This document shows positions 1 to 57,700 of a stretch of DNA of 64,000 bases, in pieces. Source of the stretch: Schmidtea nova (taxonomy: Eukaryota); assembly GCA_044892505.1 (NCBI GenBank), contig CM097882.1, positions 511,934,001 through 511,998,000 of the forward strand, read 5' to 3'. The notes beneath the pieces are model-generated. The model was given only the letters and a program-made list of their open reading frames with translations, did not search any database and was not told where the DNA came from. A program made the position numbers and the translations under genes. Within the stretch, counting starts at the first letter, position 1; every line of letters begins with the position of its first letter.

Positions 1-180
1 ACAAATTCGCAGTTAGCGCGTATTCTACCGGTTGCTGTGTTTTGATTCATCTTCACCTTTTGGCGTTTTCCACTTAATTGTTGGATTTTTAATGGAAGCT
101 AAGGTTAAAAATGGAATCTTGCGCGTTCTCTACCTATGGGGTTATCGCTTTATTAAAACAAATTGCGTTTTGGCCCAACA
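1..180 (-). repeat. LTR copy, partial (3' LTR if the element is minus-sense)
   Basis: No mismatch seen against 17208-17387 over 180 bp; the minus strand begins TGTTGGGCC. Confidence 0.8.
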
Positions 181-766
181 TAAAATACTCGGGGGCCCGC
201 AAAAATTGCGTCCCGCAATTTCTCAGAGGGGTTAAGAACCAAGACTAATCAAAGGTCAAAAGGTTGTACATTATACACGAGCTACTTGGTCGTGATCATG
301 CCGTTCGCGACAATAAAAATAAAAAAAAATTAATAAAATTATACATATACATAAATATGAGTCTACATCGACTCGCAAACAAAAAAAAATTAAATGTAAT
401 ATATGTGCCTACAGCGGCTAATCAAAGTTCAATATGAGTCTACAACGACTCGGATAAAAGTTTTACCAAGTTTATTAAGTTTGTTGAATTATCAATTTTA
501 TTATTGAATTGGTGGGATCTTCGACTGGAATAGTTTGAAGGACTCGTTATTGATCAACGGTTTCTTGTCATCTTCCCTTCGGGATTTCAAATGATTCTTT
601 ATTACATTGTTGATTTGGGTTTAATTGGCCATTTACAGGGGCATTACGATTTTTACACAGGGTCATGATTTAAATGATGCTGAAGTATTGTTAAAGATGA
701 GGATACAAATAGATGGATAGATTAAATGAATGGAAGAAAATACATGAGTTGTCGAATCGAATCGTA

Positions 767-1579
767 TTATTGTTTATAGAAATAATTCATCTGCACCGAG
801 GTTGTAGATGTCTCAGGATTAGGAGGTTCTGGAACTGGATCTTCAAATATTGATCTTAGAAAATTCTCTGACGGGTTGTTGTCTTCATGGGTGATTCGTT
901 TAATGGTATTCAACTGGATTTTTGCTTTCTCTAATTTCATTTTTTCTACTCCGATTGATGCAACAATGCTAAGGATCATTATGACCGTGAAAAGACTGAT
1001 GCCTTGTAGAACGACTGTGATGGCTGCTTCTCGGTCTCTGACGTCTTTGTTGGTTGATCCTTGTTTAGGGATAATCTCCCTTTGCTTTTCGGGTAATATC
1101 AATTGTTTTATAATTCTCTCGGTTTGATGAAGTTGAGTTTTTAGTTTTTGATTTAACTCCTCTGTGAAACTTGATCTTTCCTCATTAACTTCATCTTTAT
1201 TATTTAGAGATTTTTCTATTAACTTGCTCAATTTCTTTAGTTCGGTTGTTAACTGTTTGAAGAATGATTGGCTTTCGAGTTGTTTCTTTAGTTGAAGATT
1301 GTTTCTTTTGGTTAAGGAGATTTGTAATTGGATTAATTGTTGAGTTTCATTTCTCAATTGTTTAAGGATGGTGATTGAATCTTCTCTGGATTGGGGACAT
1401 TGTTGACATTGCAGTTGGATCTGTTGACACTCCTCATTTCTGGTGATACAAATTTCTTGATAGCTTACACATATGCTATCGGCTCTTCTAAATGGATGGC
1501 TTGCATAACATTGACTCAATGCTTCTTCGCTTCGGCAGTTTGTAATTATAAATACCACGATGGTTGTTGTGATCCTCAT
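767..1579 (-). CDS. Predicted type-I membrane protein (signal peptide, Cys-rich segment, coiled coil, TM helix, cytoplasmic tail); last ORF of the cassette
   Basis: 270-aa open ORF. Hydrophobic N-terminus MRITTTIVVFIITNCRS, six Cys in aa 24-61, heptad-rich middle, TM-like AAITVVLQGISLFTVIMILSIVASIGV. Confidence 0.75.
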   Translation of the reverse strand: MRITTTIVVFIITNCRSEEALSQCYASHPFRRADSICVSYQEICITRNEECQQIQLQCQQCPQSREDSITILKQLRNETQQLIQLQISLTKRNNLQLKKQLESQSFFKQLTTELKKLSKLIEKSLNNKDEVNEERSSFTEELNQKLKTQLHQTERIIKQLILPEKQREIIPKQGSTNKDVRDREAAITVVLQGISLFTVIMILSIVASIGVEKMKLEKAKIQLNTIKRITHEDNNPSENFLRSIFEDPVPEPPNPETSTTSVQMNYFYKQ

Positions 1580-1686
1580 TAGATTGCTCTTTTTCTATAG
1601 ATTTATAGATTCAAATTTGTTTAATGATTTGTCAACTTTTCTCTTTTATATTTTTACAGGGATATTTACATGAGTTTAGATATATT

Positions 1687-2262
1687 TTATTCTTTCGTCT
1701 CTTCATTTAGCTTTAGCGGACTTTCTGGCTTCCAGTTACCCATTTTTGCAATCTCGTCTGCTTCTTTTCGCCTTTGTTCTTTGAGGACGTAATTTTCTGC
1801 CGTTTTGATTTCTACAACTTTCTTTGCTTTGAACGTATCAAATTTTGCTTCGATGATTTCACTTTTCAACTTTATTATCTGTTTCTCTCTTTTTATAATC
1901 TTTTTCTGTTTGTTCTTCAATGATCGTTGTAATGACTCGATCGTAATTCTCCTTTTATTATCAGTGTTCTGTTCACTGCTTATTTCCCTTTTGAGTCTGT
2001 CAATCTCTTGCTTCTGTCTGTCGCAATATTTTTGAGTGAGACCATTTTGTTGGCGAAATAGATAATTTTCTCGCTTGATTATTTCCATCGTCTCGCACTC
2101 TTGCTCTATTTGTGCGATATATTTTCTATCTTTGCTCACTACTTCCTTCAATTGGTCTATTTGGTTTTGATAATATTGCTCTGTTGCTCTTTTCCATTTT
2201 TTGAATCTTTCTTTTGATATCGTTTGTTGTTCTGGTTCTGATCTTTGCTTCAATAATCTCAT
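1687..2262 (-). CDS. Coiled-coil protein of unknown function (element cargo)
   Basis: 191-aa open ORF, K/E/Q/I/L heptad composition, acceptor TTATAG 3 nt before the ATG. Confidence 0.7.
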   Translation of the reverse strand: MRLLKQRSEPEQQTISKERFKKWKRATEQYYQNQIDQLKEVVSKDRKYIAQIEQECETMEIIKRENYLFRQQNGLTQKYCDRQKQEIDRLKREISSEQNTDNKRRITIESLQRSLKNKQKKIIKREKQIIKLKSEIIEAKFDTFKAKKVVEIKTAENYVLKEQRRKEADEIAKMGNWKPESPLKLNEETKE

Positions 2263-2526
2263 TTTCTATAATTTGAATTTTCATAACTCTTTTCTACAGT
2301 TTTATTAATTTTGTTTTTGTTTTTATCATTTTTATCATTTTCTAATTTTTATTTGTTTTTCATTTTTTTTTTTTTTCTAATTTTTATTGAATTTTTATTT
2401 TTTCTGCTTTTTATTTAATTTTTTTTGGATATATTTTACAACTTTTGCTTTTTACATTTCTTTACAACGTTTTCTTTTTACACTACCTTTCAATTTCTTT
2501 TTACACTTTACATTCACTTTTATTAT

Positions 2527-3210
2527 TTATACAAACGTCTCTTCAATTTCTCCGAACCCTTCATCTTCGATTTGAGGATTTTCTTGCTCCAAATGTACAG
2601 GTTGTATTGGTGTTGGATATAGTGGCCATAGAATTATTGGAGGTTGATTTTGTAGGCTCTGAACTCTCTCTCGCAAAGTTCTTGAGATTTCTATCTCTTC
2701 ATCTAGCAAATAGGTCATATAATCGAGTTCTTCACTCAGCTGTTCCTTTTCTATCTCGAGCTCTCTCGTATTTTCCATGTTTTTCAACCTTTCAATCTCT
2801 CTTTCATAGTTTTGGCGGTTTTCTTCCAAACTTTGGATAGCCATTTCAATCTCATACTGCGATTGCTGGATCGCTTTCTCACATTCGGCCTTTGTTTCTT
2901 CTATCTGCCGTCGCTGGTGTTGAATGACAATGTCTTTATGCGTATTTGTTCCTCGATATCCGTTGACTTCACGGTTTGCAATAGTCAATTCAATTGTCAA
3001 TTCTTCAATACTTCTATCATCCATGTTTTTCTGTTGATCATATTGCCTGTTTTCAAATTCCAGATATTTGATACGAGCTTCTTGATTCCTGGTAAATTTC
3101 ATTCTCCTTTGATTCCATTCGGTTTTTAATTGAATTTGCCGTCTTAATTCTTTGTTTTCTATCTCTTGCTTTTCTGCATTTTCCCATAATTCTGCTTCAT
3201 TTATTGACAT
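2527..3210 (-). CDS. Coiled-coil protein; reading frame is open upstream to 3372 and overlaps the preceding ORF in the -1 frame
   Basis: 227-aa ORF rich in E/Q/R/N heptads; no stop in this frame between 3372 and 2530. Confidence 0.65.
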   Translation of the reverse strand: MSINEAELWENAEKQEIENKELRRQIQLKTEWNQRRMKFTRNQEARIKYLEFENRQYDQQKNMDDRSIEELTIELTIANREVNGYRGTNTHKDIVIQHQRRQIEETKAECEKAIQQSQYEIEMAIQSLEENRQNYEREIERLKNMENTRELEIEKEQLSEELDYMTYLLDEEIEISRTLRERVQSLQNQPPIILWPLYPTPIQPVHLEQENPQIEDEGFGEIEETFV

Positions 3211-3305
3211 CAGCTTCTTTGGGAATTCGCGTAGTTCGTCTCGAGTTCTTTTCCAGGTCTTTTTCCATGTTCTGGCTTGTTCTATTAGCCACTTTATTTG
3301 ATGCT

Positions 3306-4070
3306 TTATGCTTCTTTCTCTGAACTGTCCGTTTTCAACTGGAATATTTCTTTTCTGAGTTTCTCCGTTTCCTCATGACGTATGTCTGCATACCAATGAC
3401 ATTCCTCTTTCAGAGCGTCGATTTGAACGTCTCTCCGTCTTAGTAATTCTTCCTGTAACATTTTTCTGTGTCGAGCCATTTCCAATAAATCTTGGTGTTC
3501 TTGTTTCCATTTCCTAGCCTCTGCTTTAACTTTTCTAATTATCTTTTCTTGTTCGCTTTCAGGTTCAATGTTTCTTGTTCTGACTTTAAGCTTCTTTTGA
3601 GGTTGTCCTCTCAAGGCAAATGCTTCATCTCGACACTTTTCCCATTTCTTTTTCATGGCTTCATATCTGTTTCTTTCACTTTCGAGTTGTTGCTGATAGA
3701 ATCTTATGGAGTTGTCATACCTTGTTTCGGTATCTCTTTTATAAGTTTCGAGCTCATCTTTTCTTAATCTCGCTTGGTTTTTCAACGGTACCGACTTTCG
3801 TTGTTCGTGCTCGAGTTTTCTCTCCATTTCTTTGTACTCTCGTTTATAATTTTCTAGTTCGGCTTCGATATGCGCCTTGTCGATTATTATCTTTCGTAGT
3901 TCCTCATTTTCCTCTTTTATTTTATTGATCTCTTGGGTTCGTTTTTCAATCATTTTAACGTTCTCTTGGATGGCTTCCATTCTTTGTTCATAATTTCTCA
4001 TTTGATTTAGTTGCTCTTGTCTTTTGGCCATCTCCTGATCTAGGATGTCTATCAATTGTTGTATATTCAT
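3306..4070 (-). CDS. Long coiled-coil (SMC/myosin-tail-like composition) protein
   Basis: 254-aa open ORF of E/K/R/Q heptads, acceptor TTTCAG 1 nt before the ATG. Confidence 0.7.
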   Translation of the reverse strand: MNIQQLIDILDQEMAKRQEQLNQMRNYEQRMEAIQENVKMIEKRTQEINKIKEENEELRKIIIDKAHIEAELENYKREYKEMERKLEHEQRKSVPLKNQARLRKDELETYKRDTETRYDNSIRFYQQQLESERNRYEAMKKKWEKCRDEAFALRGQPQKKLKVRTRNIEPESEQEKIIRKVKAEARKWKQEHQDLLEMARHRKMLQEELLRRRDVQIDALKEECHWYADIRHEETEKLRKEIFQLKTDSSEKEA

Positions 4071-4205
4071 TCTGAAATAATAATAACATGGGTAATTTCC
4101 TTTTGTTTATACATTTTTTTGTTACTCATGCTTATTAAATAATACTTGTATACATCAATTGAAATTAAAATCTTTACAATTTATTTACAAAGTTGCTTAT
4201 TTGGA

Positions 4206-4655
4206 TTATTGATCGGCATAACGGAGATATAATAAATTTCTGTTTACACTTTCTGTTAACAAAGCTTGTTCATTTTTCCATTGTGCATAGGCTTGATTCA
4301 ACATCCTGCTTAATAATTCACATTGCGTTTTCCATGATAACTCTTGCGTCATTGTCTGCTGATAAACCATCGGAGCTGATATTGATTGAGTCTGGCTATT
4401 TGTTAGTTGTTGATTTAATATGAATGTCGTTTGAATTGGGTTCATGGTTTCATCAAATAGTGGAATTTCGACTTGGTATATCAGATTTCTATCATCAATT
4501 GTTGGATTTTGCGTTTCATTTTCGATTACTGGGGTTTGCAGTGACCTTTCTCTTTCTCGTATATTGGTATCTTCTGGAAACTGAATTTGATTTGATGGTT
4601 CATTGAACGTTGGAACTGATGTTTGATAACTTTGACTCTCGTTGTTCGGATTCAT
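4206..4655 (-). CDS. Q/N/T-rich protein with a C-terminal helical segment, unknown function
   Basis: The ORF track starts at a TTG (4664); the first ATG is at 4655, 2 nt after acceptor TTGACAG. About 149 aa. Confidence 0.6.
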   Translation of the reverse strand: MNPNNESQSYQTSVPTFNEPSNQIQFPEDTNIRERERSLQTPVIENETQNPTIDDRNLIYQVEIPLFDETMNPIQTTFILNQQLTNSQTQSISAPMVYQQTMTQELSWKTQCELLSRMLNQAYAQWKNEQALLTESVNRNLLYLRYADQ

Positions 4656-4806
4656 TTCTGTCAATAATTACACAATATTATCATTTGTTTTTCCCAGTTT
4701 TTAGGTATTCAATTTTTTGGATTTTTAAATTTTTATTATACAAATATATTCTACTTTTATAGTACAATATAATTTTATACACTATATACACTGTTCCTTC
4801 CACTGG

Positions 4807-7800
4807 TTACTCTGACAACTTGCGTTTCGACGACATCCTGATGTTCTCATCTGGCTCGTCGGTTAATATGACTTTTATGTCTTCTTGGGTGACTTTTGAA
4901 CCATTATGTGTTACTATCTGACATACGAGTGTTCTAAACATTTCTTGTGCTGCTTTCCTTTTGTAAATCCAGATTTTGTATTTTGCATCCCGCTTCAATC
5001 CATTTATTCGGATTTCTCCTCTTTCTGCTCGTTGGCATTTGACTGGATTATCTCCTTTACTTTGCAAGTTGATGCTACTCCAACATGCTTCTTCATTATC
5101 TGCTCCTGATGTTAATACTTGTACTGGTTTTCCCTTGTCATCAGCTTCCGTTCCTTTCAATGTTGACAGCATCAGTTTCAGCAATATTATGTCTTTTATT
5201 CGAGTTTTATGTAGACATGCTGTTCGTTTTTCATAATTTGAAGTTTCTTGCTTGAGTTCATCACTTTTGTTCCCAATTTCATCGTTATTGCTTTTTCCAT
5301 CATCTTTCTCGTCTTTGTCATTGTTTCTGTTGATACTTTCATTGTCATCTTTCTTTGTTTTGTTGTTGTTATTCCCTTCATCTTCATCGTCAGGCTTATT
5401 GTGATAATCCGAACCACCCTCGGTTTCGTTTAAAATGTCGTCCTCGACATTTATTAGTTTTATTATTTCCTCATATCTTTTCGCTATTTCATCTGCTTCG
5501 GCTTTTATATTTGCTCTCTTGGTTATTTCATCTTTGGCGTTGTTCCAGCTTCGGTGAATTCTGCTTTCTTTTATATTTTCCTTCCATATGATGACTTGCT
5601 GATATAATTCATGTCTTTTAGCTCCAATTCTTTCTTTTTCTTTTTTGTTGTTCGTAAACCTGAAATCAGGTCTTTGCAGCAATGCTTTAATCGTTTTACA
5701 CATTTTCCATTTTCTTTTCATGGCTCTTTTCATTATCATATTTTCACCGTCTTCAAATCTGTCATTGACATTTATCACTCCTTCGTGCGTAACTGGATGT
5801 AACCATTTAATCATTTTTGCTGTTGTTTCGTCGGCATCTTTGTTCACTGCATTTACTAATGGATTTGGATCTGAACTGAGCACTTCAATATCTTCTTCTG
5901 TAGCATTTGACATAATATATTTGATTATTTGATGGTTATTTGCTTGCACTGCATAAGATAACACCGTTTCATTTTTATCATCTCTTTCTTTAAAACTTGA
6001 TCCGGTTCTCATCAGTTCTGCTATGAGTTTCTTGGATCCTCCTTTTTCAATTGCTACCATCAAGGGTGTTTGATCTTTCCAGTTTTTCGTGTTGGTATGT
6101 TGCTTGCACTTTTCCATGAGTTTTATGATTTCAAACATTCTCTGTTCATTCCCACTTTTTATTGCGTGATACAATGGTATCTCATCTTTAAAACTGGCAA
6201 TTGTAAATAATATTGGTAATCTTTCTTTTATGGTATTCATCGCTTCTGTCGTTTCATTTCCTTTAGCATATTCCTCAACCATTAAGCTTACTCCTCCCAA
6301 TATTTCAAATAGATTTTTACTTTTTGACCATTCTGGCATAATTTCTTTGGTAATCTCAATGATCAATTCCATCTTTTTGCGGTGCTCCATTTTTACATCG
6401 TCAACTATCTTAGGTTGTTCAGATATTGTTGTCGGCTGATTTACTTTTCTGCTCGCAGTTAATATACGATGTAGCCAATCGTCATTTTTATTCTCTCGAA
6501 ACATACATACTTGTCCTTTTCTGGTCATTTCTTGATTTGATTGTTCTGTCGCTGTTTCTCTTGTGCAATTTTCTTCAATTTGGTGTTTCAACTTCATCGT
6601 ATTCAAATCAATTACAGATCCTTTTAACAGTTTTGGTATTAAGTCTGTTCCAATAATGCATGATGCACCCAGTTGTTTTATTACTGTCAAATAAGTTGAT
6701 ATTTTTACATTTCTGTATTCGATGTCCGTCCATATTTTTCCAACGATATTGACAGATTCTTTGCTGCATGTTATTACGTCTACTGATGTTTTCTCAATGC
6801 ATGACCATAACAATTCTGGTATCATGTCGATATCTATTGCTGATATATTTGCGCCAGTATCTATCATCGCGTCTACTTTTACGCCATTAACTTCGATGTT
6901 AATTGTAAGTGTTGGTCCAGCTGGAGTTTTCATCATTGCCATTATCGTTGTTTTGGGATTATCTTCACCTGTCGCTTTTCTGGTCAACTCGCTTCCTACA
7001 ATTTTATCAACAGTTAATTTATTACTTGTTTCGATTTGTATCGGGGTTACACCGATTTCTATATCATCATCCAGCGATTCTCCATCATATTTCAAGTGAA
7101 ATGGTAAATTGAATGGTAATCTCTCTTTTATCTCTTTGATCTTTGTTGTTAATGATACATTCATCTCTATTTCTTCTATACTCGGAAACTGAATTTTCAA
7201 TCTGCACATCTGTGGGTCATCGTTTGTTTGTTCCAGTTGTTTCCATTTTCTCATGATGTCATCAAATTGTGTTAAATACCAAGGGCATAAACGTCTGCAT
7301 TTCTCGATTTCTCTCACTATTAATCTCATGTTTGATATATTTGCACTATTTTTTATAACCCATTTTAGTAATTCGGTTGTTGTTTCACATTGATTTCCTG
7401 CACTCTTGCTTAGGTTACTGATTAATCGTTCGGTCTTTGACGTCTCTGTTTGTCTTGGTCTTTCGAGCTTCGCTGATTTCCTCTTTTCCTCCGACTTCTG
7501 ATTCATTTTCGTCATTTCTTCTATGGAAATGGTTAACAATCTTTGTGCCACTTCTTCTAATTTGATTGTCGTAGATTCATCCCATTTCTCGTCCATGCTA
7601 CATGTATCATCATTGCTTCTTCTTTCTCTTCTTTTTCGGTTATATTTCTCCACAAACTTCTTCTTTTCTTCTCCCTCCATATCTTTTACTGAAAATTCAT
7701 ATACATTTCCCTTTCTTTCGATTTCAACGTCTGATAATTCGGTTATCATTTCATTTACTTTTCCTTCGATATTCCGTTGTAGTTGCATTTTCATTGTTAC

Positions 7801-7917
7801 TACTTCTTTTTCTTCTTCCTGTAAATTATCTTCTACTTTTGGACTGGTTAGTCTCTGCTCCTCTTTTAATAAATTATCTTCTGAGTTTACACTGGTAATT
7901 TTCTGATTCTCCTCCAT
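4807..7917 (-). CDS. 1036-aa multidomain protein: ubiquitin-like domain + retropepsin-type aspartic protease + ankyrin repeats + FN3-like C-terminal domain
   Basis: Ubl pattern aa ~237-305 (EIEMNVSLTTKIKEIKERL...HLKYDGESLDDD). Protease aa ~335-445 (IEVNGVKVDAMIDTGANISAI...CIIGTDL). Ankyrin repeats aa ~577-755 (PLYHAIKSGN, DQTPLMVAIEKG, ETVLSYAVQANN, NPLVNAV). IRINGLKRDAKYKIWI resembles the FN3 E-F strands (weakest call). Confidence 0.85.
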   Translation of the reverse strand: MEENQKITSVNSEDNLLKEEQRLTSPKVEDNLQEEEKEVVTMKMQLQRNIEGKVNEMITELSDVEIERKGNVYEFSVKDMEGEEKKKFVEKYNRKRRERRSNDDTCSMDEKWDESTTIKLEEVAQRLLTISIEEMTKMNQKSEEKRKSAKLERPRQTETSKTERLISNLSKSAGNQCETTTELLKWVIKNSANISNMRLIVREIEKCRRLCPWYLTQFDDIMRKWKQLEQTNDDPQMCRLKIQFPSIEEIEMNVSLTTKIKEIKERLPFNLPFHLKYDGESLDDDIEIGVTPIQIETSNKLTVDKIVGSELTRKATGEDNPKTTIMAMMKTPAGPTLTINIEVNGVKVDAMIDTGANISAIDIDMIPELLWSCIEKTSVDVITCSKESVNIVGKIWTDIEYRNVKISTYLTVIKQLGASCIIGTDLIPKLLKGSVIDLNTMKLKHQIEENCTRETATEQSNQEMTRKGQVCMFRENKNDDWLHRILTASRKVNQPTTISEQPKIVDDVKMEHRKKMELIIEITKEIMPEWSKSKNLFEILGGVSLMVEEYAKGNETTEAMNTIKERLPILFTIASFKDEIPLYHAIKSGNEQRMFEIIKLMEKCKQHTNTKNWKDQTPLMVAIEKGGSKKLIAELMRTGSSFKERDDKNETVLSYAVQANNHQIIKYIMSNATEEDIEVLSSDPNPLVNAVNKDADETTAKMIKWLHPVTHEGVINVNDRFEDGENMIMKRAMKRKWKMCKTIKALLQRPDFRFTNNKKEKERIGAKRHELYQQVIIWKENIKESRIHRSWNNAKDEITKRANIKAEADEIAKRYEEIIKLINVEDDILNETEGGSDYHNKPDDEDEGNNNNKTKKDDNESINRNNDKDEKDDGKSNNDEIGNKSDELKQETSNYEKRTACLHKTRIKDIILLKLMLSTLKGTEADDKGKPVQVLTSGADNEEACWSSINLQSKGDNPVKCQRAERGEIRINGLKRDAKYKIWIYKRKAAQEMFRTLVCQIVTHNGSKVTQEDIKVILTDEPDENIRMSSKRKLSE

Positions 7918-8674
7918 TTCTTTCTGAAAATCGGCTACAAACTTTCTAATATTGTGGATTTTACTTCTTTATTTCTCAGTTTTATTTCTTTTTAATTTCC
8001 TCTCGTCGTTTTTAATAGATTTGACTCTTTATCTTTCGACTTTACGAACTTGGTTGGTGTGGTAATATTGTCAATTTGTGTTTAATATCGATTGCTGATC
8101 TTTCTTTTATCTTCAATTGGATCTTCTTCGATTTATTTTCTTTTACTTCTTTCCTTTTCAATTAGACTTCTTTTTCTTCTTTTCTTCTATATATACCTCT
8201 TCAATAACTGATTGATTTGACTGTTTCTTGACTTGTCTTTGATCTGTTGGACAATCTAAATAAAAATATCGCTTCTTCATCGACGCCATTTACCCCCCTT
8301 TTACTCTGAGCTCAGATTTTAAATTATCTATATCTCGTAATAATTATCTATATGGTCGTATCAATTATCTATACCCTGATAATAACAATAATAATAACAA
8401 TAATAATACTATAATAACAATAGGATCCTGTCGACTCGTTTTCATACTCATCTCGGTGTTCGAGGTAATAAAAAAAATGTCTTGTTCATTATCTATTCAT
8501 GGCCATTATTTTATTTCCTAGGTATTTCTCGATATCTTTGTCTGCTCTTGTTAACGGTTTCTCTTACTACATCTTAAGTATTCGCGTTCAACGTTTCTCT
8601 CTATCATAACAAAATTATAACTGCAGTTTTATTTAATTCTATTTCTCAAACGTTTTTCCTAAATTTCTCAACAA

Positions 8675-9296
8675 TATTCACAAACATTGGACTCTCAAAG
8701 TCTCTCACATACATGAACTCTCAAAGTTTCTCAATATTCACAAACATTGGACTCTCAAAGTCTCTCACATACATGAACTCTCAAAGTTTCTCAATTATCT
8801 GGACTCTCAAAGTCTCTCATACATGAACTCTCAAAGTTTCTCAATTATCTGGACTCTCAAAGTCTCTCATACATGAACTCTCAAAGTTTCTCAATTATCT
8901 GGACTCTCAAAGTCTCTCAATTATCTGGACTCTCAAAGTCTCTCCCAGAGCGCTCAATTATCTGGACTCTCAAAGTCTCTAAATTACCTGGACTCTCAAA
9001 GTCTCTCAATTATCTGGACTCTCAAAGTCTCTCAATTATCTGGACTCTCAAAGTCTCTCAATTATCTGGACTCTCAAAGTCTCTCAATTATCTGGACTCT
9101 CAAAGTCTCTCAATTATCTGGACTCTCAAAGTCTCTCAATTATCTGGACTCTCAAAGTCTCTTACATACATGAACTCTCAAAGTTTCTCAATTATCTGGA
9201 CTCTCAAAGTCTCTCACATACATGAACTCTCAAAGTTTCTCAATTATCTGGACTCTCAAAGTCTCTCGCATACATGAACTCTCAAAGTTTCTCAAT
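8675..9296. repeat. Minisatellite array, ~26-bp period, about 23 copies of the core ACTCTCAAAGT with two alternating variants
   Basis: Units TGGACTCTCAAAGTCTCTCAATTATC and CATGAACTCTCAAAGTTTCTCAATTATC read directly from the sequence. Confidence 0.95.
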
Positions 9297-10322
9297 TTTT
9301 CTCGGCCGTCTTCGATTATTCTCTTTATACTATTTAATCACTCGCTTTCCTATTCTCGATTTTTAATTTTTCACAAATAAATTCGCTGTTACTGACTGGT
9401 TTTCTCAAATTGTTCTACTACTTCTCAGTTACGAGTTTCTTAACTACCATGGTAAATTTTTCTACTATAATCGTCGGAATTCACTTTCTACTCTTTCGAC
9501 TTTCTAAAATCTGCAGCATCTTTCTCTTTATTAATGTTACTGTCCTCTACCTCAGTGTACCAATCATGCCTTGGCAAACTGGTGTATAAGACGAACATTA
9601 CGGGTTAAGCCCTTTCACCTAATTCAAAATCGTAAAATAATCGCGTTAACTCGTTTCGCAATTTGTGATGATCAGTCACAAACGAAATTTCGCCAACATA
9701 TGCGATGGATATCCTATTCTACTCTCTTTCCTCAAGGTGATCAAGTTTTTTCCCCGTTTGTTGTCTACTAATTTTTCAACAATAATAAAAAAAATTGGCG
9801 TACTATCTTTTGATAGCTCTGTTAAAATTTGGCGTACTATCTTTTGATAGCTCAGTTATGAATTTGTGTACTATTTTCCTGTTTCCTACTCAGACACTCA
9901 TTTATCGCTCTATTTCAGAAGATTCTCCTTATAAAATCAACTCCTATAACGCTACTTATTGCTCGTCCTAATTCATACATATTTATATATATAATGATCA
10001 GTATAATAATGATAATCAATATAATAATGGTAATAAGAAAGATTATAATAATGAAATTCGGTTCAATATAATAATGATGAGGAGGATTTATAATAATAAT
10101 AATAAAGAAAATTCAAAAAGAAAAGAAAATAACTTTGCCACAAATTCCCATTTTCCTAATGTTTGATTTTTCGGCATTAGCCGTTACTTGTTATGTTTTT
10201 TCACGATTCTCAGTTATTAATTACCTAGTGTTTTTTGTTTATTTAATTTTTATAACGGTTTGTATTACTGGATGATCGACGAAGTTCAACACGACTAAAA
10301 CGTTTATTTCGAACGACATTCT

Positions 10323-10805
10323 TTATGAACAGAATACGACGATTTTGTCATCAATTGTCTGTTTGCAGATTACGCATCGCTTTATTTCTCTAGAGCACGG
10401 CTGGCAATAACACAAATGCCCACATGGCATGAACAAAATGTTCGCTTCTTTTTGTCGACAAATATAGCATCCTTCAAACGAATCGATCTGTTGATTTACC
10501 GATCTCTCTAGCTTGTCCATGATTTTATCGATTTTACCAATCCATTCTTGTATTTTTAGATTAAAATTTGGATTATTCAGTCGCAATCGTTGTAATTCGT
10601 AAATTGTTTCTAACGAAACATCGTTTGTTGTTCCTACAATTCCTGCAATCACTATTAGGTTCTCAGGTTGTGGTCTAGGATTCAACAATAATTCATCTTT
10701 TATTCCATTTACTCGTTCGAGTTTCTCGCTCAACACCTGCAATGGGTCATTTTTAAAATCGAAAAACAACTCGATTCGTAGTAAAATATGCTCAATCGAT
10801 TCCAT
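10323..10805 (-). CDS. RING-HC (C3HC4, IAP/XIAP-like C-terminal type) putative E3 ubiquitin ligase with a helical N-terminus
   Basis: CYICRQKEANILFMPCGHLCYCQPCSREIKRCVICKQTIDDKIVVF at the C-terminus; acceptor TTTTAG directly abuts the ATG. Confidence 0.85.
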   Translation of the reverse strand: MESIEHILLRIELFFDFKNDPLQVLSEKLERVNGIKDELLLNPRPQPENLIVIAGIVGTTNDVSLETIYELQRLRLNNPNFNLKIQEWIGKIDKIMDKLERSVNQQIDSFEGCYICRQKEANILFMPCGHLCYCQPCSREIKRCVICKQTIDDKIVVFCS

Positions 10806-11804
10806 CTAAAATATTCATGATGACTGGTGTTTATAACTTTTTGAATTAACCATTCATTATAATTTGAACGAAAAATAAATAATAAAAACTTCAACAGCTA
10901 TTTACACGAATTTTTATAATTTTTTATATATTTTTGTATTTTTTCAAAACTACTGTTAACAGAATAATCAGCCATTTTTATACATATTTTTTATATTTTT
11001 ATATTTTTATAATTTTCTCCATTCGTCCATATTCGATATTTTTCGAATAAAATATTACAATAATCAGCCATTATGTACATAATTTTTATGATTTTTTAAA
11101 TTTTTAATATACTAATATTTTCTAAATAAAAAAAAATAATTAAACATTTATTTACACAATTTTTTCATGATTTTTGCACTTTTTATCAATTTTAAAATAA
11201 TTATATTTTTTATTTACGGTATTCACAATTTTGGTAATTTTTCGTTTACTGGAAGCAATTTTTGTGTATTCAAAAATTTATTCTCTATGTGGTTCGTGTG
11301 GACTCCATCCCATGGTCATATAACATCTCCTTTTATTGGGGTCCTAATTTTGTGCATCTCAAAATTTTCATATTTGCGTTAAGTCTCACTTTTTTCTGTT
11401 TGATTATATTTGTTTTTAAGTCGTTGCTTGATTTTATTTTATGATTTCATAAGATTTTAGAGTTATTCCCGCTTTCGATTCCCGAATTGAGTCGCGATCA
11501 ACATTCCAATATCACCATGCATCATTCTGACTTCAACAATCTATCTTTTTCAACATTCAAACTTCAAACTCATTAGACTATATCATTCATTCTCTACTTT
11601 TATTATCATATTAATTAAAACAAACAATTCACGCATCGCTCCATTTTCGCCGTTATTTCTTCTAGACCCGATACTTTCCATGTCCTTCCTTGCCAACAAA
11701 ATAAAATTACAGGGGTCATACCTCGGTCATTCTTAATCAAATAGCATAACATTGATATCGCCAGTAATAATAATGACATCTACAGTAACACTCATGATAT
11801 TAAC

Positions 11805-11955
11805 AGTAACAATAATAATATTAATAATAATAATGATAATAATAATAATAATAATAATAATTATACTAAGATGCTTATAATACCACTAGTAATAATAACT
11901 AAAAAGATAATAATAATAGTAATAATAATAATTATAATGATAATAATAATAATGC
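11805..11955. repeat. (AAT)n imperfect microsatellite
   Basis: Long runs of AAT/AATAAT; smaller runs at ~8380-8420 and ~9990-10100. Confidence 0.9.
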
Positions 11956-13099
11956 GCGTTATACGGCAATTTACCCAATATATTTCTTATATATTATTAC
12001 GTAATAATTATAATAAAAATATAATAAATCCGTCTTATTTTTATATTATTTGACCAAATTACTGTTTTTACTGTTAAAAATGGCAATAATAATAATCCTG
12101 ATACCTATACTATCATTATTACTTGGTGTTACTGCTTTCTTGGGTCAAAATTCCAAAATTTCTTCAGTCTTTTAAATTTCTTAGCGGCGATTTTCTACAC
12201 TTTTTGCGGATTCCGGTGTCATATTCTATCTTTCGAGGTATTTTCCACTTGCCAGTGCTGCGTACTCACTTTCTATGCTCTATGGACGTTGTTTGAACAA
12301 TTTTACGATTTTTGGTTGTTTGTGGGATTCATTTGTCGCGGTTTGGTGTTTTTACTATTTTAGCCGTGATTTTCTTAGACTTTTGGCCCATTCCGGCTCA
12401 ACTTTTTATCTTATGCTATGTTTGATGTTTATTTATATTAAAGACACTTATTCTACGCTCTGTTGTTATTATTCATTCTCATTTTCAATCGTTGGCTGTT
12501 CGTGGGGCTTAAAGATCGTTTTTACGGCTTAACTTTTATTCGCTTTCGCGGTGATTTTGATTCGGAACTTTTTATTTTCCAAATTTTTCCAAATCTTAAT
12601 TCAAAATGGTACTTAAAATAATATTCTCTACNNNNNNNNNNNNNNNNNNNNNNNNNNNNNNNNNNNNNNNNNNNNNNNNNNNNNNNNNNNNNNNNNNNNN
12701 NNNNNNNNNNNNNNNNNNNNNNNNNNNNNNNNNNNNNNNNNNNNNNNNNNNNNNNNNNNNNNNNNNNNNNNNNNNNNNNNNNNNNNNNNNNNNNNNNNNN
12801 NNNNNNAATCCTAATAATAATACTTAATATGGTATAAAATAACTATTGTCGTAAAAATAATAATAGTAATATAAATAATATTAATAATCAAGCATAAATT
12901 TTTTCCCATTTTCGTCGAAAATACTCAAATGATTATTGATTTTTATAAAACTTTCACCAAATCTCGTTTTTCTTTAAAATACTTTTATCTTTCCAACGCA
13001 AAAACATTAATAAATTCCCACGTAAAGTCATTTCCATTGATTTTCGCTTCAAACAAAACAAACTAGATGGGATGTATCCCGGCTGAGCCCCCAAATTTT

Positions 13100-13317
13100 T
13101 ATATGGTGGGTTGTTGACCGTCAATATGACCTTGACGTTTCCATGGCTCTCATCGGACAACCCAACACATAAAATATTGAAATTACCACCTTGTTACCCG
13201 TCACTATGTAACGTTGGTACTGTAACAAGTGGGTGGGTATTCGCAATCAGTGAGCGTCGTCAATACGAAACTATGATTGACCGAATATCTCCTGGGTCCA
13301 AGGGCTACCGATAGAAG
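13100..13317 (+). repeat. Copy of a diverged interspersed repeat; homologous to 17520-17737 in inverted orientation
   Basis: GAAACTATGATTGACCGAATATCTCCTGGGTCCAAGGGCTACCGATA aligns with the reverse complement of 17522-17570, and the alignment extends ~220 bp. Confidence 0.75.
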
Positions 13318-16300
13318 GTTTCTTGCCCTTTTTGTCCCCTTCTTCGACGATTTATCTTTAAGCATTCAACAAAATTTTATCGGCAATTCAACATTAATAT
13401 TCTACCTAACTATAAATTTATTATTGCATTCAAATAAATCATTCCGAGCATCAAAACACTAATAAAACATTAAATTTTACTTATATTATAATTTATGTTA
13501 ATTATTAATGAAAGTATTCTAAAATAAAATTTTTAATTTACATTTGCATTTACGATAAAATCAAGACTTTAATTCTTAATTTGTGAAAAATATTTTAATG
13601 CTACATTAGGTTTTTTTCTATTTTCATTTTTATATTTATAACTAATTTACTTTTATAACTAATTGATATTCCGAAACAATTTGTTTCAATCCATCATTCA
13701 ATCAACAACAAGCCGAACACCATTCAAATTCACCAAGCATAATTTTCTACGCAAATCATTTCTCTCTATTGGCAAAACAAGTAAATTTTTAAGTTAAGTG
13801 ATCTGCTGAAATTAATTCTTTTCATAGCCCTCAATTTCAAAACACAGATGGAAACTCAGTTCGGAAATCTTAGCAACAACGTCTTATCACTTTAATCTAT
13901 TTGACAGATTTGAATATCTAACAATTATCCAAACAATTAATCCAATTGACAAATCCCAATTAATCAACAATCCGCGACAATGTCTAATGATCATGACTCC
14001 AATAAACCAGCGTTGTGGTCATCCATGTCAGTGACAAATACTGCTTAACAATATCTTTTCTTAGTGCTGAATTTAATATATGTACTTTATTTGCATTTTT
14101 ACTTTTTATGTAAAATGGTTTTTATCATACAAAAGGGTAACAATTAATTATTTTAATTAAAATACTTAAAGTTTTGCTAGACGAAATATAATAATCTTTG
14201 AATTTCATGTGAAAATAAATTGATTGTCACTAGATGAAATATAATATTATTTTAAAATAATATACCAAATTTTACTTTAAAAGGCACCATAAATTCACAA
14301 TAATACAATTTTTTAACTTAAACATTATTGATTTTAAAGGCAATCTTGAAAACTTCCTAATATCCGTTACAAATAAAAAGGTTCCACACCAAATGTTTGT
14401 GGTGGGTGAATGGATGAAACCTTGGCATTGTCTTTTTGGAGGTATGCATGTTTACGTATGATGTGGGATACTATCATTTCGAGCTTGATTGTTGATACAC
14501 TTTTACAGGTTTATTATGAATTGTTCATTGATAGTACAGGAGATTGTATGTGATTATATGTGTCTGTATGTTGACTTGAATGTTGGATGAGAATAAATAA
14601 TTTATTTGGTGGATGAGGTGTAGTATGATGACTGTGTGTTCTATTGTTACTGTTGGGTTTGTGTGTGATTGTATGATGAGTGATTTAAAACAATTGAGTG
14701 CTTGTGAGTGTGGTTAGACGAACGATTCTAACTAGAATGTCTGTGTGGAATTTTGATAAGGTTTGTTGGTGTGTATGTGATTGTTGGATGTTATTGAATG
14801 GTACTGTGCATGTGTGTGTATTGTATTTTATGTGTATGTTGTTTGTATATTAATATGGATGATGCTATTGAGTGAAAAGGGTGTAAATCTTTGCAATGAG
14901 TGATGTATTATTATTTTAAGATGTCGTGGGGGGTTATATTATAAATTAAATAAATTGTATAAAATATTTTTTAAGTTAAAAATAAAAAAAATTTAAAATT
15001 AAACTAATGGTAATGATTTTTAGATCAAGATAATAATAATAATTTTTAGATCGAAATAATAATAATAATTCTCATAATACTTTTTTACAAATTTTTAAGT
15101 TTTAAAATTTCTACGAAAAACAATTAACGATAAGGTTTATAATTTTTTATAATGTCGATTTGAATTTACAATTTTTATACTTTAAGAATAGATAAAAAAA
15201 ATTTCTATAAAATCTCGAATTCAGATTTTTTATAAAATAATAAAATTTATTAATATAATAATAAAATTTCAATCTAAATTTTCATGGGGTTTAATATAAC
15301 TTTTGATTTTCAAATTCTCGGGAATTTTACGAAATGATAAAATCTTTCATATATTAATAACATTAGGAACTAAATTTGGTTTACAATTTTTCCATATAAA
15401 ATCTTTTCAACATAATAAAAAGCAAATTTCTATTTCTGATCCAAATGAAATGATAATAAATTTTTATCCATAAATTCGAGATCTAAATAAGCATTTAATC
15501 TAAAAAATTTTATATGCTAAATAAAAATAAAATAAAAATAAGTTACAAATTTTTCAGCGAATATTTTTAACCTCAAGCAAAGTAAATTTCGGTTTTGTTG
15601 AGCATGAATTTCCCAATTAAGTGTACGCGAACCTTTCGGGACACTTCACTCAGGAATTTCAGGCTCTCGAAAAACAAGATTCACAGGAAAACTTATTTAG
15701 ACCACAACGAGCTTTAATTCAGATTAAATCAATACTTGTTTCACAATTTATTTCACTTCATGAGCATTATTCTAGACTTTGAGCATTATTTCGAACCATT
15801 TTCTTTTCATCATCAGCATCCATTTTACTTGCATTTTCTTATGAGATGAACGTTGTTGAGAGTGTGAAGGTGAAGGCGAGTACGAGTCGATTTTTTAATC
15901 AATAATATTTCCTATTTTAGATTTCAAGACATGAGTTAGAAATTATTATGTTGTATTACGAAATTGCTTATGTAGATAATAAAAATATGATACTCTATTA
16001 TAATACAAATCATTAGTATAACAAAACCTTGCTCTTGGCCAAACCGCGATTCCCCAGTTGGGATGACGCGAATTTGGATGTATGAGCCTCACCTTAAAGT
16101 GGAAATATGGGCTGGCCGATTACCAATCAGACAACGATCCACCCAGGCTACTAACAGATCCGCACAACCAAGGCTGGACGGATCGTCAGAAGATATGGGA
16201 GAAAAAAAAAAATTTTTTATTTATTTTCATAATTAAATTTAGTTATCGAATTTCAATGAGATCTTTCCTGAATTATTTTGGGAAATTGTGGCTCGTGATA

Positions 16301-16482
16301 ATGATTATGACAACAAAAAAACTAAGTTATTAATCATGAAAATACTTTAATAATATAAAATTGACCATAATAAATAAAATGACAAATAACATATTAAATA
16401 AAAAAAGGGGGGAATGGGATGATCGTCAGGCATGACGGACGACCATTCCAATCCCCAATGAGAATAACCAAAATCAAACAAA

Positions 16483-16491
16483 TCCTTACGT
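16483..16491 (-). promoter_or_regulatory. Candidate major splice donor in the element leader (AC|GTAAGG, GT at 16489-16488)
   Basis: Consensus-like 5' splice site ~280 nt downstream of the putative PBS; use is not demonstrated. Confidence 0.35.
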
Positions 16492-16752
16492 TTGTCCAAT
16501 TAACTTCTGCTACGATTTCTTTCAAACAAATTAATTTTTTCTTAGAAATTTGGAACGATTTTTCCACAAATTTTCTTGGAATCAACTTCTGATAGTAACT
16601 TCTTGGAATCAAATTCTGATATTAGCTTTTCTCTTCTCTTCTTGAAATCAAATTAGCTTTTCTTCTTGCAATCAAATTCTCAAGTTGGATTTCACAAAAG
16701 TTATTTTTCGCAATTTCTCCGTAAATTAATCAAGAAAAATTTTCCACCAAAT

Positions 16753-16770
16753 TCTGTCTGAAATCTGCCA
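16753..16770 (-). promoter_or_regulatory. Putative primer-binding site TGGCAGATTTCAGACAG
   Basis: TGG starts 3 nt (AAA) after the proposed LTR end ...CCATCA; I cannot assign the tRNA. Confidence 0.4.
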
Positions 16771-16773
16771 TTT

Positions 16774-17387
16774 TGATGGCGGTATATATACCATCAAATT
16801 TTTTCTACCTCCGGTAGTGCAATAAAACAAATTGTTCTAGAAGTTTCTCTTAATTTTTTCTAAATTAATTCTAATGATTTTCCGAAAATTAATTCCATAT
16901 TTTTGTATAATAATTTTTTATAAACTATAAATAATTTATTTTAATTAAAAATTTTTATGTTTGAATCGAAATTTGTTCGATTTGATTTAATTTATGATTT
17001 TCGATCCATATTAATTCTTTCTATTGTTATATGTGAAATTTTGTGATAAATTCACAATTTTCCTCTAGAATTGTGTTAATTTTTCTGCACTGAGGATTTT
17101 TATGACAAAATTCTGTTCTTTATGGGCACTTTCAATGGGTTTTCCGCCTATTCTAGCTTCCAAACATTCTGCTTTTAATTTCTCTCGAGATTTCCGTGGA
17201 AATATTTACAAATTCGCAGTTAGCGCGTATTCTACCGGTTGCTGTGTTTTGATTCATCTTCACCTTTTGGCGTTTTCCACTTAATTGTTGGATTTTTAAT
17301 GGAAGCTAAGGTTAAAAATGGAATCTTGCGCGTTCTCTACCTATGGGGTTATCGCTTTATTAAAACAAATTGCGTTTTGGCCCAACA
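16774..17387 (-). repeat. Proposed full 614-bp LTR (5' LTR)
   Basis: TG...CA termini (minus strand TGTTGG...CCATCA). The distal 180 bp are duplicated at 1-180. The right boundary is firm; the left boundary is inferred. Confidence 0.6.
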
Positions 17388-17519
17388 GTTATGTGCATTC
17401 AACATTCATTTATTATTTAACATTGTATTAATAAATTTATATTTTTAATTTTCAAGAGAATTTCAACAAATAACTATAATAAATAGATTTAGCGCGGGAA
17501 TAAAATGGGTATTATACCT

Positions 17520-17737
17520 TTTATCGGTCGCCCTTGGACCCAGTCGAGACATTTAGTCAATTATAGTTTCAACCTAATCAAGCTCACTTTTCACGGATAT
17601 CCACCCACTTATTACATTCCGAACCTTACTAGGTGATGGGTAACAAGATGGTTTAGCAAGGTTTATATATGTGGTTTTTGAGGAATAGAGCCATAGCAAA
17701 AGTTAGGGTTATTTAATTTACCAGAAACCCACCAACA
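17520..17737 (-). repeat. Second, inverted copy of the repeat at 13100-13317
   Basis: Reverse complement reads ...ACCATCTTGTTACCCATCAC...AAGTGGGTGG...CTGGGTCCAAGGGCGACCGATA, matching the 13.1-13.3 kb copy with many substitutions. Confidence 0.75.
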
Positions 17738-54700: not shown

Positions 54701-57700
54701 TCGCGCGGAACTAGCGTCAGCTTGCTTATAAGCTAGAACGCGATGCACATAAGATGGTCACTTATGGGGCACAACATTCCTTCGCATTCCTTTTTAAACA
54801 AGTTTACGCAGCACCCTGCGTATTGTTCTATGAGGTGCACGACATAGATACCTAGCCTTTTTTTGTTATTTTTAAATAAAATTTTAAACACTGTACTAAA
54901 TCAAAAGAATCAATGAAAATATTGCTATCTCGATTTTGATTGGTTGATTCGGATAAAAATAATATCATCGACAATGAACTTTACATACTACTTAATCAAA
55001 AACCAAGTACTGATTAACTATCCACTAACAAAATAAGCAAGTACTAATCAAATAAAATACATAATTCGTTAAATTATTATAAATTCTTATAAGAAAAGTT
55101 AAGTCACTTTTTAAATAAATTCGTCGTATTTAGACAACATATATTAAGTTCTGGATAAAGGTAAATGATCCTCAATTAAATTTAATAAGAATAAAAATTT
55201 CAAAGATAATTAAAACACTCTTATTAATGTGAAAAAATAGGAATAATTAGAAGAAAATTGAGTAGATGGTGAAAAATTGATCTTTGTAATTAAATTATTT
55301 CTTAATGAACTATTTCTTTTAAATAATTAAAATTTTAAGAATTAATTATATTTTTCGGTACTTGGAATAAATTTTTAAAACTAAATTTAATTAATTTGCT
55401 AGATCTTAAGATGGAGTGGTTAGATTAAAAATTAATTGTTAAGATTTAAATTATTTTGCTAGCACTTAGAATAGAATGAAATATTTTTTTAAAATAAAAC
55501 TTTGAATAAATTTTAAAGAAAGCGGTAGATTTCAGACAAAAATAATAAAAAGAAATGCTTTTTATTAAACTTGGATCATAAATGTGTTTGTATTTGCACG
55601 ATTATTTAAAGATATTTTTATTCGATTAGTAAATAATCTCCATAAAAATAATACAAAATGCTTTTTAATATAAAAAATGCAAGTAAATATTTTAAATTTT
55701 ATATTCACAGTAAATATTATAAAACAATGTCAAATAGTTCAAATGCATGCTTGTTATTACTAAGAATAATATTTAAAATAAATCTTTTTCTTAAAATAGA
55801 AGTTGTTCTTATAACAAAAAATATCTTAGCATCACAAGTTGATTGGTTACCTATGCCATATTCATTTAAATGGATGAAATCTTTGTGTAAATATTCCATG
55901 AACCAAAACGGATACTGAGTTTTACTTGGATAATTCATGGTTAATGCCGAATGAAACTATACATATATACTGCTAATTAAAAGAAATTCTATTACAGTGA
56001 AAAAACTAAAATTTAATACCAGTCAATGAATTATTTACGCTTATTACTCTCTTACAAATATTAAGCTAATTTAATGACTTAAGTATCCCATAAAAATTCC
56101 TTATAAGTACTATAATTTAATGACAATCAACTAAAACCAATCGAAATTCACATAATTCATATGGTTAGATACACTTAAATTTTCACAAAAATTATATATT
56201 TTATGGCATTCGACTAAAACTCACTTAAAACCCCCTAAATAGATATACAACTCAATAATTCATTATTAAATGTCGTTTCCCCTTTAAATTCTCCTCTTTC
56301 TAGCGAGATCTCTCTTTTATTGGATTTCCCATTAAAATTAATATATATGAATGAATAAGCTCTATGGATAAACCCTTTTTGAATCGAATTTCCTTCTAAG
56401 AGTTCCACCTTTTAATGAATTTTGTCTTTAAAGATTTTCCACATATTTTGGTATTGAATTCATATGTAATTGAAATTATTTATGTGAATTTTTAATATTC
56501 TCAAAGAAAATAATTTCTCGGTGGGTTTATTGTAATTTTAAATTTCATTTAAATTTTAACTAATTTATTTACCTATTCATTTAATTTCAGTGTTATCCTT
56601 CAGTTGTGTATCATTGATAATTATTGGGGAAAACAAATTTAAGGATGAATAATGGTGAATACATGGACAGAGTAAATACATTGAAAAAACATAATTCCAT
56701 TAAAAAGAGTAAATTCAGGTGGGAAATTCCATTGAAATATGGTAAATTCAGTAAAAGGGGGTAAATACGTTGAAAATTGTAATTTTTTTGAAAGGGAATA
56801 ATTATTATTGGGAAATTCGATTCATGACTAAGAATCTTAAAAGGAGAAATAATATGAAAATGGGAAATTATCACTTTAAAGAACAGGTTTTATCATAATT
56901 TTACTAAATGATTTATATTTTAAAATGAGAAGTTAATTTATCGATATTGATTTAAACAAGACAAATGATTTTGTTATTATAACAGAATTATGTATATTAA
57001 ATGTGAACAAAATTTTTAAGCATTATATTTGTTATTTAATGATACAAGATTTTGTGCTTTATGTATACTAAATTTTATTGGAAATCTCAAATTTTCATTC
57101 AAATGAGGAAATTATTAAAGAAATATCATTCAGATCAGGAATTCCTTAAGTGGAAAATTCATTAAAAGGGTAAATCCGTTCAAATTAGAAGTCCATTGAA
57201 AGAGTGATAACTCATTCATGGAGAAGAATTTCAAATATAAAAATCCATTCAAAAGAGGAATTGAAGGGAAAATTCCATTCAGGTGGGAAATTTCTTTGAA
57301 AAATCTAAAAATACATTAAAAAGAATTGAATTGAAAGGGGAAATCTATTCAAAGGGTGAATTACATTCAGATGAGAAAATTATGCAAAGAAAATTCACTA
57401 AATGTGAAAAAATTTAAAAAAAACTTAAAGGGTAAAATACATTAAAAGATGGAAATATCATTCAGATGGAAAATTTATTTGAAGAAAGTTCACTAAAAAG
57501 GTTAATTTCATTCATTTTGGAAATTAATGAAGAAAAATACCAATCAGAAAAATTTATAATGGGGAAATGGTAAGTGGAAAATGACTTTTAAAATTTAAAT
57601 ATCGAATTGTATATCGACTTGTGAGGTTTTCAATGAGTTTTAGTCGATTACCGTTAAATTATTGATTTTAATGAAATAATTAATCATTTGTATCTAATCA

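Follow-up and report, generated by a model that had tools for sequence, protein, structure and literature searches.

A young gene-bearing LTR element in Schmidtea nova, probable satellite of a Burro-type giant retrotransposon

How does a retrotransposon without reverse transcriptase or integrase come to hold a set of long open reading frames (ORFs)? The question is raised by the left end of a 64,000-nucleotide stretch of the Schmidtea nova genome (assembly GCA_044892505.1, contig CM097882.1, positions 511,934,001 to 511,998,000, forward strand; here called the window), where an element bounded by long terminal repeats (LTRs) carries seven minus-strand ORFs of 149–1036 amino acids (aa). This window copy is young and belongs to a very abundant, protein-coding family that is best read as a satellite of a giant retrotransposon of the Burro type. 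In the explanation that we favor, with a probability of about 0.8, an abundant non-autonomous LTR family is likely packaged and copied by a rarer Burro1-like helper, and has kept, under purifying selection, a protease and up to eight other genes that likely favor its spread via cell-survival and ubiquitin signaling.

Once the left-hand neighboring sequence was fetched, the element measured 21,491 bp, larger than first noted, with most of its length inside the window. Positions 1–180 and 17208–17387 are 100% identical, as the initial annotation had reported; the LTR of 614 bp that it predicted is in fact 4,284 bp long (Table 1), and the two LTRs form an identical pair with the long TG..CA termini of LTR retrotransposons. 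The expected GTTA flank was confirmed as a 4-bp target site duplication (TSD). The primer-binding site (PBS) next to the right LTR matches tRNA-Pro(TGG) genes, so the sense strand of the element is the minus strand. A tblastn search of the window copy with the helper polyprotein found no remnants of gag, env, reverse transcriptase (RT), RNase H (RH) or integrase (IN), only four non-replicative or protease blocks, in agreement with the reported lack of RT, integrase and gag. A gag-pol hidden in the N stretch is excluded, because sister copy c7 bridges that stretch at equal length. Four contig sets of unspecified kind were mapped; they covered all bins and gave no informative joints. The tRNA-Pro(TGG) genes, which correspond to the element's primer tRNA, form a tandem array with a 308-bp period on C1 from about 459.61 Mb, and the T-arm/acceptor sequence has 899 exact matches genome-wide.

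The family was sampled with an LTR probe (40 matches listed), from which 15 sisters with paired LTRs were fetched, and six more copies per type were picked by position from the probe lists. Thirteen of the paired sisters have the layout of the window copy, and two encode polyproteins of 4,892 and 4,707 aa. Gag, env, RT, RH and IN are absent from between the LTRs in 20 of 20 full satellite copies (a match in n4 falls outside its LTR), and the satellite interior spans 12–17 kb. Exact matches genome-wide number 1,495 and 1,759 for two probes from the satellite 1036-aa ORF, 2,097 for the PBS-LTR junction, 983 for IAP, 387 for the junction left by deletion of TRAF and IAP, and 176 for the helper RT; by probe counts, satellites outnumber helpers about 8–10:1. 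PBS matches with a different spacer number only 16. The copies are young: LTR pairs differ by 0–2 substitutions (99.9–100% identity in the 13 copies cleanly resolved), and the TSD is a perfect 4-mer in all 15 copies with both ends called and in n5 besides, the 13 others each lacking a called end. The proposal of a young, non-autonomous, Burro-related LTR element is upheld. Same-strand PBS junctions also occur 21–26 kb apart (C1:523318595 with C1:523339765, and C2:136232422 with C2:136253119), which suggests tandem LTR-interior-LTR-interior-LTR units.

The autonomous partner that the initial annotation had postulated also exists. It is a Burro1-like element of about 30 kb that has its LTR ends and tRNA-Pro primer site in common with the satellite, and its single 4,892-aa ORF matches, by Pfam, retrotrans_gag, CCHC, MATH, a Monjiviricetes fusion glycoprotein (E 2e-70), protease, RT, RNase H, integrase and ankyrin, in the polyprotein order gag-MATH-env-PR-RT-RH-IN-ankyrin (PR, protease). 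The layout is the one described for the planarian giant Ty3/gypsy element Burro1/GYPSM1, whose 4,873-aa product combines gag, CCHC, MATH, an in-frame fusion glycoprotein before PR, RT, RH and IN, and ankyrin (PMC6431247). In six of eight helpers the ORF runs without a break for 4,700 aa or more. The RING160 region is incomplete (about 320 of 483 nt) in five of the eight (a1, a2, a4, a5, and a6).

A full satellite has eight or nine ORFs, encoding a RING protein, a protease-ankyrin protein, a TRAF, a cIAP-like protein, two coiled-coil proteins, one unknown protein, and one or two membrane proteins. Their order on the sense strand is RING 160, 1036, 211, TRAF 485, IAP 389, 515, 191, membrane 274 and, in some copies, membrane 264 aa; this ninth ORF is full length in three of six position-picked copies. 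Comparison with sister copies shows that the window copy does have the seven ORFs first described, but that they represent six genes and are not all intact: the 515-aa ORF, intact in 12 of 13 other copies scored and 482 aa long in one, is split, and a 3.07-kb deletion cuts the 211-aa ORF and takes out TRAF and IAP. Copies c4 and c6 form one deletion subfamily with the window copy. The 1036-aa protein aligns with the helper polyprotein in four collinear blocks of 43–63% identity, between which Gag, env, and RT-RH-IN are left out in frame; its protease is retroviral (DTG motif, Pfam RVP E 2.7e-5), its ubiquitin-like match is weak (E 0.04), and the spacing of the protease-ankyrin junction is identical in 20 of 20 full copies. 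The family TRAF (485 aa) has the RING-zinc finger-MATH layout of TRAF2/3/5-like proteins and its gene adjoins that of the BIR-RING IAP (389 aa), whose top PDB sequence match is cIAP1. In the predicted membrane protein, six cysteines are kept in two distant homologs; Grindelwald and TACI are weak leads (Atlas 0.75–0.77), the model of the Cys-rich part reaches a predicted local distance difference test (pLDDT) score of only 54–69, a fold search with it matched only a coiled-coil helix, and a PDB profile search gave nothing meaningful. An Atlas search with the 515-aa ORF returned only unnamed or generic coiled-coil clusters. Homolog searches with the 1036-aa and TRAF queries gave no matches; since TRAF itself went unmatched, the search was insensitive and lends no support to novelty. 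A T-rich, YAG acceptor-like signal lies within 20 nt of 4–6 of 7–9 first satellite ATGs, compared with about 6% of other ATGs, and is not present before the helper gag ATG. Motifs of the I-x-M-M-R kind recur at domain borders of the helper and have the look of protease sites (9 against 1.8 in shuffles), but this pattern, drawn up post hoc, has just one match in the satellite and was set aside.

Satellite and helper give different histories in their coding and terminal parts. In a DNA tree of the protease, eight helpers and 20 satellites separate cleanly (one change, support 100/100), with synonymous differences of 0.63–0.71, near saturation, and 63% protein identity. A tree of LTR ends (last 600 bp, 26 rows, leaving out a3 and n2, in which no complete LTR was called) requires six changes between helper and satellite labels; over these 600 bp, helper c15 does not differ from four of the satellites, nor c21 from one. 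The whole LTR of c21 is 97.7% identical to that of the window copy, and the same helper has the nearest relative of the window RING gene (99.2%). Separate protease clades together with mixed, partly identical LTR ends indicate an old split with recombination ongoing, and old coding divergence with common ends is the outcome that would be expected of co-packaging and template switching. The satellite as a fresh deletion product of the present helper was ruled out, as the coding blocks in common are just 43–63% identical in protein. Compared with positions 13104–17387, sister LTRs have middles that are block mosaics of several haplotypes and ends that are 94–98% alike.

The eight satellite ORFs are under purifying selection. 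The initial annotation had proposed comparing copies by the ratio of non-synonymous to synonymous substitution rates (dN/dS), and pairwise values for the eight ORFs tested are 0.09–0.34, or 0.16–0.51 after correction by the mutation spectrum at four-fold sites (p ≤ 1.1e-4 for each ORF). The sample comprises 14 copies ranked by similarity, of which 10 entered for TRAF and IAP and 13 for the 211-aa ORF, and its variants are not fully independent. Copies differ at 6–12% of synonymous and 0.7–2.7% of non-synonymous sites, with third positions enriched. Within the 1036-aa ORF both the protease (0.25) and the ankyrin part (0.23) are constrained, and the DTG motif is retained in 20 of 20 copies. The initial view that all retained genes are accessory thus fails, as the protease is a replication gene. 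That the ORFs might be single-copy host genes was likewise rejected.

Beyond what was observed directly (structure, counts, cis-signals in common, LTR mosaicism, and selection), we infer a cycle in which satellite RNA would be co-packaged by helper Gag, helper RT would prime at the common PBS, and template switching would homogenize the LTRs and leader. The helper integrase would then make the 4-bp TSD. Satellite ORFs may be expressed from spliced or trans-spliced RNAs, the mini-polyprotein presumably being cut by its retained protease, and TRAF, IAP, and RING could influence cell death or immune signaling in trans. If so, copies without TRAF and IAP, the window copy among them, could ride along. 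The domains suggest host manipulation as the function of the cargo; the window copy, for its part, no longer has the two most telling of these genes, TRAF and IAP.

Several points weigh against this explanation. Mobilization in trans would account for the TSDs and common ends rather than having been observed. Exact-match counts vary with probe conservation. An approximately unbiased (AU) test on the LTR ends, with identical rows left free, does not reject a single clade of helpers (p 0.19). With dN/dS about 1.0, the 1036-aa ORF seems to evolve neutrally in its acidic and C-terminal parts. TRAF and IAP have been lost repeatedly, with at least four different breakpoints and 387 matches to one deletion form alone, so both are dispensable in cis; repeated loss also fits action in trans. 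No polypurine tract was found before the 3' LTR, and because the same non-purine sequence fills this slot in two helpers, an atypical plus-strand primer is likely. The rules for both the acceptor-like signal and the cleavage motif were set after the data had been seen.

A more specific account is possible, which we consider less likely than not. The two families would form an old, stable, two-component system in which the rare env-bearing helper gives the replication machinery, the roughly tenfold commoner satellite contributes in trans a maintained module of receptor, TRAF, IAP, and RING along with a protease of its own, and TRAF/IAP-deleted cheaters spread within the satellite. If true, an animal genome would here harbor a division of labor like that of segmented viruses. 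It is improbable that the cargo is instead retained for host benefit, as a multicopy source of TRAF/IAP-type proteins. The TRAF2/3/5-like and cIAP-like domain layouts are complete and planarian TRAF genes are expanded (PMC6109357), but copies with identical LTR pairs differ from one another, so the changes arose in replication cycles and not at fixed host loci; moreover, a retroviral protease is retained as well and deletion forms spread freely. We give similarly little credence to the satellite as an interfering element that would use its protease and other products to hold back or exploit the helper: its numerical excess and its own diverged protease would suit this, but most cargo (TRAF, IAP, and the membrane proteins) points toward host signaling rather than helper proteins, and helper copies are likewise young and mostly unbroken. 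Less probable still, the selection signal could be the legacy of an undetected autonomous family that bears this cargo, the satellites being its deletion products. In Burro relatives, TRAF and BIR occur in accessory ORFs or as accessory domains (PMC6431247), and 283 of the 1,759 protease-probe matches fall outside the exact protease-to-ankyrin junction pattern found in the other 1,476; however, among 20 such exceptions, drawn from the first 100 listed, 19 run from protease to ankyrin and one is truncated, with RT in none, and both the uniform junction spacing and the scarcity of other PBS spacers argue against such a family. A carrier of captured, neutrally evolving DNA in the manner of a LARD, with ORFs open merely through youth, would fit the near-identical LTR pairs and the broken ORFs of several copies, but is refuted by the excess of synonymous differences and their pile-up at third positions unless alignment bias explains it, and we regard it as very improbable.

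Table 1. Features of the element in the window (positions counted from the first letter of the 64,000-nucleotide stretch).
Feature	Position	Strand	Remarks
3' LTR, inner end only	1..180	-	complete 4,284-bp LTR begins outside the window, 4,104 bases to its left, at C1:511929897
Polypurine-tract slot	181..200	-	non-purine sequence instead; same sequence in helper copies
Ninth-ORF remnant (264-aa signal peptide/coiled-coil/transmembrane protein)	504..620	-	
Predicted type I membrane protein, 270 aa, 6-Cys N-terminal domain	767..1579	-	TNF-receptor likeness merely a lead
Coiled-coil-like ORF, 191 aa	1687..2262	-	
Coiled-coil-like gene, 515 aa	2527..4070	-	here broken into 254-aa and 227-aa ORFs
Truncated ORF, 149 aa of 211 aa	4206..4655	-	deletion junction near 4225; TRAF (485 aa) and IAP (389 aa) gone
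Mini-polyprotein, 1036 aa	4807..7917	-	post-Gag linker, ubiquitin-like region, aspartic protease (DTG), ankyrin repeats
26-bp tandem array in leader	8672..9349	.	also in helper
IAP-type RING protein, 160 aa	10323..10805	-	also in helper, where copy c21 is 99.2% identical in DNA
Primer-binding site, 18 nt	13076..13093	-	complementary to 3' end of host tRNA-Pro(TGG); 10 nt from LTR
5' LTR, 4,284 bp, TG..CA	13104..17387	-	identical to 3' LTR
TSD GTTA, 4 bp	17388..17391	+	

Replication-defective transducing retroviruses and helper-dependent satellite viruses are helper-dependent genomes that carry cell-fate genes and recombine with the helper at their ends. The planarian satellite resembles them in its probable helper dependence, its predicted cell-fate genes, and end recombination with the helper; it differs in being germline-fixed at very high copy, in coding sequence long diverged from the helper, and in keeping its own protease. 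The TRAF2-cIAP signaling module belongs to TNF receptors, and the adjacent TRAF and IAP genes of the satellite are a predicted counterpart, although the window copy lacks both and the receptor-like ORF is only putative. Large retrotransposon derivatives (LARDs) are defined by an interior without maintained coding capacity. Like them, the satellite retains LTRs and PBS, has lost replication genes, and is presumably moved in trans; unlike them, it has an interior of 12–17 kb with eight ORFs under purifying selection. In non-autonomous LTR derivatives the interior need not be coding and is seldom longer than 10 kb (PMC6431247). With Burro, the satellite has in common the accessory set of TRAF, BIR, RING, and ankyrin domains (same source); MATH/TRAF, BIR, ankyrin, and, by a weak match, ubiquitin-like domains are present at the family level, TRAF and BIR being deleted in the window copy. 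It differs in that gag, env, RT, RH, and IN are missing and the cargo forms 8–9 separate ORFs; the polyprotein of some 4,900 aa that unites gag, env, and pol in an autonomous Burro is found in the helper and not in the window family. No description of a non-autonomous Burro was found in the literature searched, which left the definition of Burro-2 to -4 (Grohme 2018) and repeat libraries, where a similar family may be contained, outside the comparison.

In the satellite, the apoptosis and ubiquitin domains that are so puzzling in Burro stand apart from the replication genes, which makes them testable ORF by ORF. Non-autonomous LTR elements are usually regarded as non-coding passengers; here a multi-gene cassette has been kept under selection after a long split from the helper, with which LTRs are still swapped. 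If most probe matches are full-length, the family would occupy an estimated 30–40 Mb, or 2–3% of the genome, and its intronless TRAF, IAP, and RING copies could inflate apparent gene-family expansions in annotation.

Just outside the element, at about 17496–17650, lies an inverted match of 75% identity to the inner LTR end. The remainder of the window shows short ORF fragments only, as expected from the initial statement that its other transposable elements are broken; those at 25823–50179 resemble what we take to be hAT-type, Helitron, non-LTR, and gypsy proteins. At 54872–58958, terminal inverted repeats (TIRs) of 586 bp, 96% complementary, enclose 2.9 kb, likely a TIR/foldback element.

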